A DNA stretch of 59,139 nucleotides from an uncultured virus (IMG/VR IMGVR_UViG_3300020048_000046) (lineage: Duplodnaviria; Heunggongvirae; Uroviricota; Caudoviricetes). Shown in pieces: positions 24,491 through 26,089 of the stretch (position 1 is the stretch's first letter; each line of letters begins with the position of its first letter). The notes below the pieces were generated by a model, which saw only the letters and a list, made by a program, of their open reading frames with translations, searched no databases and was not told the DNA's origin. The position numbers and the translations under genes are program-made. The DNA lies in the IMG/VR virus record IMGVR_UViG_3300020048_000046; one strand, written 5' to 3'.

Positions 24491-25171
24491 ATGACTGAAG
24501 AAGAATTAAAAAAATGGTTTTGGGATAAATATAATTCCTGTTATTGTGTGAAACATGATGATTATCCAGAAAGCATTTTTATGTATTATGATAAAAATTT
24601 TGCTAGACAAAAGAAACTAGCAAGAGTTTTAGATCAAGAATTAATTTATCCGTCAAAAGTAGAGGGTATTTTCTTATTTGAGCAAGATCATAAAACTAAG
24701 TCTTTGTGGTGTGATAATAATGAAATTTGGGCATTTTTTGAACAAAATTATGTATATAACTACAAGAAAATCAGAGAATTGATCAAAGGTTGGTTGGAAG
24801 AAGCATCTAAATTAACGGTATTAACACCCCATATCTCCGACTATGCAAAACCTTTAAAGTTGGTAGAAGCATCAAAATTAGAGGTATTAACACCAAATGC
24901 ATCTGCCGGAAGCGTTGGCTTGCAGTTGGAAGAAGCACCAAAATTAGAGGTATTAACACCTAAAGTTGTCGATGATGCGATTGAATCAGGGTTTGAAGAA
25001 GCATCAAAATTAGAGGTATTAACACCTAAATACGCTGTCGCACTCCGGTTGGCGAGGTTTGAAGAAGCATCAAAATTAGAGGTATTAACACCATATGGAA
25101 AAATTGCTCCTCACTCCGGAGCGTTGAACGAATTAACAAAATTAGAGGTATTGGAACCTAGAACAAAATAG
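24491..25171 (+). CDS. array-fused family member; reads through array 1
   Basis: N-domain followed by (L/F)[11 protein letters not shown] + 10 variable aa units. Confidence 0.85.
24793..25158 (+). CRISPR. CRISPR-like array 1: 6 repeats, 5 spacers of 30 nt
   Basis: Consensus GTTGGAAGAAGCATCAAAATTAGAGGTATTAACACC at 24793, 24859, 24925, 24991, 25057 and 25123 (last one degenerate). Confidence 0.8.
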
Positions 25172-25237
25172 ATAATTAATTTAAATGTAGGATTTTATTA
25201 TCCATATTATAGAAAAAATATTAAAAAAAAATAGAAA

Positions 25238-26089
25238 ATGACTAACGAAGAATTTAAAAAATGGTTTTTGGATAAATATAATTCATGTTATTATGTAAAG
25301 TACGAAAAATATCCAGAAAGCATTTTCATGTATTATGATAAGAATTTTGCTAGACAAAAAAAATTATCAAGAGTTTTAGATCAAGAATTAATTTATCCAA
25401 CAAAAGTAGACGGTATTTGTTTATTTGAACAGGATTATAAAAATAATAGATTATGGTGTAAATATAAAGAAATTTGGTCATTTTTTGAAGAAAATTCTAC
25501 ATATAACTACATAAAAATTAGAGACTTGATTAAAGGTTGGTTGGAAGAAGCCTCAAAATTAGAGGTATTAACACCAAAATGGAGCACTGAATTTTTTAGT
25601 TCAAAGTTGGAAGAAGCCTCAAAATTAGAGGTATTAACACCTATTGGTAGCGTCAAACTCAGCTGTAATACGTTGGAAGAAGCCTCAAAATTAGAGGTAT
25701 TAACACCTGAGGGAATTGTCGTTGAATACAAATCATTGTTGGAAGAAGCCTCAAAATTAGAGGTATTAACACCCGGCAATGGCGTTGATTGCTACAATGC
25801 TATGTTGGAAGAAGCCTCAAAATTAGAGGTATTAACACCTGAAAGCTTTGGGATAGGGAAAACAATACAGTTGGAAGAAGCCTCAAAATTAGAGGTATTA
25901 ACACCTGCATATGCAAGTAGGCACAGCCAAATGTCGTTGGAAGAAGCCTCAAAACCAGAAATATTAATACCGGCAGATAAATGGATGTTTATTACCCATA
26001 AGTTGGGCGAAGCATCTAAATTAAAGGTATTTAAACCAGAACAGGTTGAAAGCGGTTGGAACTGGAGGTTGGACGAAGTATCGGAATAG
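25238..26089 (+). CDS. array-fused family member; reads through array 2
   Basis: N-domain followed by eight 22-aa units. Confidence 0.85.

Follow-up and report, generated by a model that had tools for sequence, protein, structure and literature searches.

What does a repeat-spacer array do in a virus when it is also the end of a protein gene? The question is raised by a 59,139-nt stretch of DNA from an uncultured virus of the class Caudoviricetes (IMG/VR record IMGVR_UViG_3300020048_000046), the whole of which we refer to as the window. At 24829-25935 it carries two arrays with a period of 66 nt, in which a 36-nt repeat alternates with variable segments of 30 nt (here called spacers), an arrangement with the textbook geometry of CRISPR arrays. 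A preliminary description of the locus had proposed that the spacers were captured from host or other mobile DNA by integrase-type acquisition, and it overlooked the coding nature of the arrays: they form the 3′ portions of protein genes, in frame and without stops. Judging from the reading frames, we conclude that the arrays are the predicted translated C-terminal part of a multicopy family of megaphage proteins.

Every array continues, in frame, an upstream gene that encodes an N-terminal domain of 100 residues. Repeat and spacer together (36 + 30 nt) make a unit of 66 nt, or 22 codons, which encodes a 12-residue motif, L-x-[E/D]-x-x-K-L-x-[V/I/L]-[L/Y]-[T/S/A]-P, and 10 variable residues. 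The 24 spacers of the window contain no in-frame stop codon, where 20,000 mononucleotide shuffles gave an expectation of 16.7 and a minimum of 4; their other two forward frames hold 24 and 3 stops. Across the 21 distinct arrays that we collected, a stop occurs in 3 of the 79 spacers whose length is a multiple of three, against about 54% expected for random 30-mers of such GC content. From one array to another the repeat consensus varies in the manner of a protein motif, with K-L invariant and exchanges of E for D, among V, I and L, and of L for Y, and the spacing of 22 residues is kept in 51 of 57 intervals across distant members of the family.

In the window the 36-nt repeat is present in 18 copies when up to three mismatches are allowed (none in 100 shuffles) and in 29 copies, on the plus strand every time, at up to 10 mismatches. 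These make up four arrays (24793-25158, 25540-26037, 34127-34625 and 52395-52760), which together hold the 24 spacers, and a solitary copy at 11476. Of the 11 variable 30-mers in 24829-25935, five belong to the array at 24793-25158 and six to that at 25540-26037. The 100-residue domain has seven paralogs in the window, as follows.

24491..25171, plus strand: family gene 1, 226 aa; N-terminal domain at 24491-24792, in-frame array at 24793-25158 (6 repeats, the final one degenerate with 9 mismatches, and 5 variable 30-mers)
25238..26089, plus strand: family gene 2, 283 aa; N-terminal domain at 25238-25539, in-frame array at 25540-26037 (6 identical 36-nt repeats, 2 degenerate distal repeats and 7 variable 30-mers)
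33995..34671, plus strand: family gene 3, 5′ part under an N mask (33944-33994); array at 34127-34625, 8 repeats
34361-34391, within family gene 3: spacer 4, 31 nt, frame-breaking; the next three spacers are stop-free in their own frame
52093..52782, plus strand: family gene 4, 229 aa; array at 52395-52760, 6 repeats
11174..11575, plus strand: family paralog, 133 aa; one repeat copy, at 11476-11511
23969..24487, plus strand: family paralog, 172 aa; AT-rich tail with degenerate copies of the repeat motif only
52864..53307, plus strand: family paralog, 147 aa; degenerate tail

A protein identical to the product of family gene 1 is present in the protein collection (P0001). Runs of N occupy 18061-18107, 33944-33994 and 50096-50105 (108 bases in total); the second of these hides the start of family gene 3 and makes that gene look fused to a gp30.3-like gene at 33702.

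The N-terminal domain is modelled by AlphaFold with a predicted local distance difference test (pLDDT) score of at least 95, and the array part, past residue 140, with a score below 50. Out of 1.84 billion cluster representatives (clusters at 50% identity), a profile search with the domain returned 350 at E<=1e-3; in these relatives, proteins of 86-276 aa, it occupies residues 1-100 and is N-terminal without exception. A search with the tail alone found four proteins, none of them new. The loci for which DNA is available come from IMG/VR (19) and from JGI metagenomes (11), those from IMG/VR lying on low-GC contigs of up to 256 kb that are 15-36% complete according to CheckV. As many as 23 copies are found on one 105-kb fragment and 18 on one 235-kb fragment. 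In one megaphage lineage about 14 family paralogs are arranged head to tail (L036 and L033, at 216-222 kb of G002 and 70-76 kb of G005); nearly all have short, degenerate, AT-rich tails, and a few members with intact repeats occur in the same genome.

Neither Pfam, PHROGs nor PADLOC assigned the family, the sole match being phrog_5688 (E 0.002) for one paralog. With the domain model, Foldseek against the PDB gave a best E of 0.2, a wide VIA-align search a best Z of 3.6, and a BFVD fold search only uncharacterised paralogs of one uncultured phage; the domain profile matched no PDB sequence, and the ESM Atlas gave no usable feature match and one structural row, a minority NucS_C label below threshold. 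We considered a PD-(D/E)xK nuclease and rejected it on the following observations: D66 is conserved in only 70% of 140 sequences and K68 is not conserved. The predicted complex of the domain with four repeat units scored 0.01. Among INPHARED phages, blastn with gene 2 and both arrays found nothing at E<=1e-5 and tblastn with gene 2 found no match, and the repeat core pattern had 0 matches in IMG/VR.

The spacers stand apart from the phage in composition. The window has a GC content of 24.8%, close to the 25% that the preliminary description had estimated by eye, and its 1-kb bins span 19.4%-31.8%, the top two being those that bear arrays. The same description gave eight hand-counted spacers 8-17 G+C per 30 nt, and our counts agree with it: 11, 16, 12, 17 and 14 in the array at 24793-25158, and 8, 12, 10, 14, 11 and 14 in the six spacers of the array at 25540-26037 that lie inside 24829-25935, that is 139 of 330 bases (42%). 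The 30-mer that it quoted, at 25027-25056, indeed has 17 G+C, with four CpG dinucleotides, and the mean GC content of all 24 spacers is 39.4%. The comparison set consisted of 20,000 random draws, each of 24 in-frame windows of 27 nt, from 70 background open reading frames (ORFs). The mean G+C of the spacers is 10.96 of 27 (highest of the random sets, 8.96), their G+C at third codon positions (GC3) is 3.17 of 9 (highest, 2.13), and their CpG count is 0.875 per spacer (highest, 0.708). In a second control the spacer peptides were re-encoded with the phage's own codon usage in 5,000 trials, which gave a GC content of 33%, a GC3 of 16% (maximum 24%) and eight CpG (maximum 19), compared with the observed 41%, 35% and 21. 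Since recoding falls short of the observed GC3 and CpG, the amino-acid content alone is insufficient to account for the excess. The spacers are thus distinguishable from phage coding DNA, no resampled or recoded set having reached the observed values, and the many CG dinucleotides of the preliminary description are confirmed.

The excess extends to all three codon positions, with GC fractions of 0.44/0.42/0.35 at positions 1/2/3 in the 24 window spacers versus 0.34/0.26/0.14 in the 70 background ORFs; 46 spacers from relatives give 0.32/0.39/0.30 versus about 0.3/0.25/0.15. When the 70 spacers of the window and its relatives are pooled, the GC skew is 0.01 and the AT skew 0.04 (phage coding strand, 0.22 and 0.12), and CpG observed/expected is 0.90 compared with 0.68 in the phage. 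No position within the 30-nt spacer is conserved or informative, and over 593 spacer codons a model of independent bases without stops outperforms the codon usage of the phage by 95 nats. Compared in register with each other, the spacers share on average 8.2 of 30 bases, as against 7.9 in shuffles, with a maximum of 16. In short, they look like strand-symmetric DNA of about 35-40% GC without codon structure. Searching the window for a template of any spacer yielded best matches of 18-22 of 30 bases, as in shuffled controls. The foreign composition, the lack of a template in the window, the mutual unrelatedness of the spacers and the definition of the units at the DNA level (below) argue against an origin by mutation of phage sequence; to this extent the earlier proposal of capture is supported, and no donor was found for it in the collections searched.

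The boundaries of the units belong to the DNA and not to the codons. The repeat starts 1 nt ahead of a Leu codon and ends with the CC of a Pro codon, so that both boundaries lie off the codon grid and the last codon of the spacer, although hypervariable, is fixed at its third base, which is G in 20 of 20 window spacers. For the Pro codon, the relatives show a nearly even distribution of third bases (A10, G12, T14, C10), compared with 62% CCA among background Pro codons. Within arrays the repeats are identical at synonymous sites too, in array 2 over all 36 nt in six of six copies, and the neighbours of these identical repeats are spacers at random-level identity. Among the 81 unique spacers of the 21 distinct arrays, 75 are 30 nt long, two are 36 nt, and one each is 21, 27, 29 and 31 nt. 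The 29-nt and 31-nt spacers both break the frame, and the units behind each stay stop-free in a frame of their own; the 29-nt spacer, the third of its array (L042/L045/L047), is identical in contigs from three samples. Two further defects were seen, at the first spacer of the L004/L050 array at 3903 and at the second spacer of L020: a spacer whose last codon is completed to TAA by the first base of the repeat, and a unit with two compensating 1-nt indels. Units distal to the defective ones are intact and stop-free. No RNA hairpin is shared among six repeat variants, the 5-bp stem of array 2 (z -1.6) being absent from the others.

The decay of the repeats is polar. The first repeat, adjacent to the N-terminal domain, is the commonest form of its array in 17 of 20 arrays, the last repeat in 3 of 20, and mean mismatches climb along the array, from 0.2 (first repeat) to 4.2 (last), two of the large distal values coming from off-register extension. 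Array 4 of the window matches the protein P0003 except for exactly two additional units (44 aa) on the side of the domain, the remaining 185 aa being identical. Where spacers are shared between arrays they are identical or absent. The GC3 of the tail is 0.275 where repeats are near-identical, 0.184 where they are degenerate (a group that includes tails too short to score) and 0.17 in the N-terminal domain (13 versus 18 genes, Mann-Whitney p=0.009), which fits foreign-looking units that decay to the composition of the phage.

The rest of the window is phage-like, with many genes to which no family could be assigned, and it also encodes a DNA methyltransferase and a homing endonuclease. Its proteolysis genes (4830-6140, 7349-8476, 50280-52100 and 55577-56341) comprise a Clp-type AAA+ unfoldase split in two genes, a ClpP-like protease, and an FtsH-like M41 peptidase that carries a ClpB D2-small domain. 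The gene for this peptidase is overlapped at its end by family gene 4. At 37173-40606 on the minus strand, three consecutive genes each encode an ART-PolyVal ADP-ribosyltransferase domain (E 1e-20 to 3e-26). A 513-aa protein encoded at 18146-19687 has a CUB domain and a C-terminus that resembles the Por_Secre_tail sorting signal of type IX secretion, at 24.6 bits, below the cut-off of 27. Mahaphage-clade megaphages have Bacteroidetes as their predicted hosts (PMC12607003), and together with the sub-threshold C-terminus this hints at a Bacteroidota host.

Sixteen of the 166 window ORFs of at least 50 aa, otherwise unrelated, end in a common motif, L-R-x-x-K-L-[K/N/E]-R-I-L, with 0-3 residues behind it. 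Examples lie at 10804-11181, 11603-12106, 15912-16199, 21746-22174, 23410-23976, 27901-28602, 28615-30432 (four genes), 33314-33700, 44819-45874 (minus strand), 49697-49918, 53352-54624 (two genes) and 56571-56834. The motif loosely resembles the K-L-x-V-L of the arrays and may serve these proteins as a common tag for targeting, membrane binding or degradation. In two cases the stop codon of such a gene and the start of a family gene overlap. Other tandem repeats, at 57315-57885, 58739-59139 and 43820-44079, recur every 81 nt or 63 nt (27 or 21 codons) and sit in minus-strand genes, one of which encodes a PKD domain and has a large structural-protein PHROG as its match; these are ordinary diverged repeats, not repeat-spacer arrays.

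How do the arrays compare with systems already described? They have near-identical repeats and unique spacers of similar length, as CRISPR arrays do, but they are coding, and they lack a non-coding AT-rich leader. The II-C and VI-B repeats of Flavobacterium columnare are 36 bp long, with a leader-distal GTTG end (PMC8092290). The likeness to those loci extends to spacers of about 30 nt that are unique, one degenerate end repeat, a polar appearance and an occasional deviation of 1 nt in length (PMC8092290). Unlike them, the window array is an ORF fused to a protein domain, its 'leader' is coding and the orientation of its repeat is reversed; in addition, no cas gene, protospacer or known repeat family was found, and the divergence of the repeats from phage to phage shows a protein-like constraint. 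Phages are also known to carry mini-arrays and solitary repeat units. The orphan arrays of megaphages, in the sections seen of PMC12607003, are likewise phage-borne without adjacent cas genes, and matched no virus in the data of those authors; they are treated there as non-coding guides that work with host or phage Cas proteins, and in those sections none is described as translated in frame with a gene family.

Three ordinary categories do not fit. False-CRISPRs (PMC5294841) are tandem repeats inside protein genes, and they share with the window arrays the repeat-spacer appearance within a coding gene and the lack of cas genes; they are defined by a lack of spacer diversity, and the window spacers have random-level identity (8.2 of 30 versus 7.9 when shuffled) and a foreign composition. 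A spuriously translated CRISPR array would, on a published criterion (PMC7673337), show itself as a short ORF that covers a real array and has cas genes no more than about 10 kb away; here there are no cas genes, the ORF has a conserved and confidently modelled domain, and the stop-free frame is beyond chance. Diversity-generating retroelements (DGRs) resemble the arrays in that hypervariation is directed to the C-terminal part of a phage protein. A DGR requires a reverse transcriptase and a template repeat and makes its changes at adenines. Neither the window nor five incomplete related fragments gave an RVT_1 domain, the window yielded no template, and the variable blocks bear no relation to each other. 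Tandem repeats within ORFs of large mobile genomes are known from Borg elements. Hypervariable repeat proteins of the transcription activator-like effector (TALE) or leucine-rich repeat (LRR) kind, described in PMC10392669, are also tandem protein repeats with conserved and variable positions. In such systems either a few residues vary within units that are otherwise homologous, or the units are perfect copies, unlike the unrelated 30-nt blocks with off-codon boundaries seen here. In the main texts searched, taken without supplements (which may list the sequences of megaphage arrays), no account of phage repeat-spacer arrays that are translated in frame came up.

We suggest, at somewhat short of an even chance, that the arrays grow by the insertion of a duplicated repeat together with 30 nt of non-phage or untemplated DNA, that the products are filtered for an open frame, and that they later decay. 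Growth would take place at the DNA level and mostly at the end of the array next to the N-terminal domain, where the 36-nt repeat would be duplicated as the 30-nt piece is inserted. Because 66 nt is 22 codons, the insertion of a unit preserves the frame; units that carry a stop or have the wrong length would mostly be purged by selection, and old arrays would drift toward the AT-rich composition of the phage. Several observations weigh against this proposal. No donor for any spacer was found in the window, INPHARED, IMG/VR or one metagenome-assembled genome (MAG): blastn of gene 2 and both arrays against INPHARED at E<=5 gave AT-rich matches outside spacers only; of four spacer cores searched in IMG/VR, that of a window spacer had no match and those of three spacers of relatives led to their own arrays only; and the L020 array, compared with the MAG to which it belongs, gave besides its own copy nothing more than another array on that contig and weak AT-rich hits. 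Pfam, PHROGs and PADLOC revealed no cas gene, reverse transcriptase or other candidate integrase in the 59-kb window, and Cas1 and RVT_1 are absent from the five related fragments, each only 15-36% complete. Of the integrase-type acquisition of the preliminary description, the DNA-level unit structure is supported, and an integrase was not found in this DNA. The difference between array 4 and P0003 could equally be a deletion. L030 and L021, at first sight a case of polar addition, have three distal spacers in common and are 99.9% identical over 1,179 nt of distal array and flank (850 nt of flank), and only 82% identical on the domain side; they are a recombinant with its crossover within the repeat, so that exchange at repeats does occur and could mimic addition. 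GC content shows no gradient along the arrays (rho 0.02, p=0.87). Turnover is not fast, as several arrays recur unchanged in different samples, and Gly and Phe are 2-fold and 1.65-fold above the independent-base expectation in the spacer peptides (chi-square p=2e-6). As neither a donor, a cas gene, a reverse transcriptase nor a matching host CRISPR repeat was found, we infer the foreign source and the enzyme, as we do the insertion event itself and its polarity.

The most serious competitor, which we nevertheless consider rather unlikely, is an ordinary repeat protein in which a 22-aa tandem repeat has arisen by duplication, the 10-residue linkers are under strong diversifying or relaxed selection, gene conversion or unequal crossing-over homogenises the 12-aa motif, and paralogs swap units at the repeats. 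It accounts for translated arrays whose motif evolves like that of a protein, for the regular 22-aa spacing (51 of 57 intervals), for the fact that the odd lengths besides 29 and 31 nt are all multiples of three (21, 27 and 36 nt; four spacers), for the recombination at the repeat of L030/L021, for the stability of arrays across samples, and for the Gly/Phe enrichment, which hints at some constraint on the protein. It leaves unexplained a GC3 of 35% where 16% is expected for the same peptides, the lost strand skew and codon-position structure, the fixed third base of the hypervariable codon and the uniform third base of the Pro codon, and zero differences in 6 x 36 nt beside spacers of random-level identity. 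Homogenised tandem arrays, moreover, usually degrade at both edges, and in 17 of the 20 arrays the commonest form occupies the proximal position; the all-or-none sharing of spacers is a further difficulty.

Genuine phage-borne CRISPR arrays that use host Cas proteins, with translation secondary (for example, as a means of preventing termination of a long transcript), seem to us improbable. The repeat-spacer geometry, the diversity of the spacers, the degenerate distal repeat and the 29-nt and 31-nt spacers would suit such an origin, the combination of a 36-nt repeat and a 30-nt spacer is a geometry known from Bacteroidota, with F. columnare repeats of 36 bp (PMC8092290), and the hints of a Bacteroidota host described above, the sub-threshold Por_Secre_tail-like C-terminus and the Mahaphage work (PMC12607003), point the same way. 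On the other hand, Rfam gave no CRISPR-DR family at E<=10 (three chance-level snoRNA/lncRNA rows were returned), and a degenerate repeat pattern with 20 fixed bases, a single pattern that diverged host repeats could escape, matched in 185,579 species genomes only one contig, phage-like, of the same family and binned in a MAG. Repeats differ widely between phages and keep the peptide motif, no hairpin is conserved, the 'leader' is a conserved domain with a confident predicted fold, and neither a cas gene nor a protospacer was found; the GTTG end adjoins the 'leader' here and is leader-distal in F. columnare (PMC8092290). An artefact, be it mis-assembled repeats or an ORF wrongly called across a non-coding array, is hardly credible. 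Translated CRISPR arrays do contaminate protein databases (PMC7673337), and short-read contigs do break at these repeats: when contigs of four runs were compared with 23900-26300, all of them broke there, and they are therefore uninformative on array heterogeneity. Against it stand the stop-free frame (shuffle probability <1/20,000), the continuation of the frame of a real domain in every case, the identical arrays in contigs from three samples, the exact pieces of the window arrays in run X1, and the absence of nearby cas genes, by which the same source recognises spurious proteins (PMC7673337).

Growth by insertion of foreign or untemplated DNA, our preferred explanation, admits a bolder form, which we regard as doubtful: that a megaphage lineage has turned CRISPR-type writing into a protein-diversifying device, in which an integrase writes 30-nt pieces of host or competitor DNA into the 3′ ends of dozens of paralogous genes. 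The writing enzyme would be the Cas1-Cas2 of the host or an unrecognised phage enzyme, conceivably linked to the N-terminal domain encoded upstream, and each capture would place a new 10-residue peptide cassette between constant 12-residue motifs.

The consequences reach beyond this locus. With textbook CRISPR geometry and diverse spacers, such arrays would be called CRISPR by array finders and would not be removed by filters for spacer diversity, so that counts of 'phage-encoded CRISPR arrays' in huge phages, and virus-virus networks built on spacers, could be inflated. A family of this size (350 clusters, up to 23 copies in 105 kb), with no Pfam or PHROG family and no structural match, makes up a sizeable unexplained part of megaphage genomes. 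If arrays do grow by insertion, the acquisition of spacer-type DNA is not limited to guide RNAs and could generate protein diversity, in a virus; and if the bolder form is true, the virus would carry an adaptive, heritable library of peptides.

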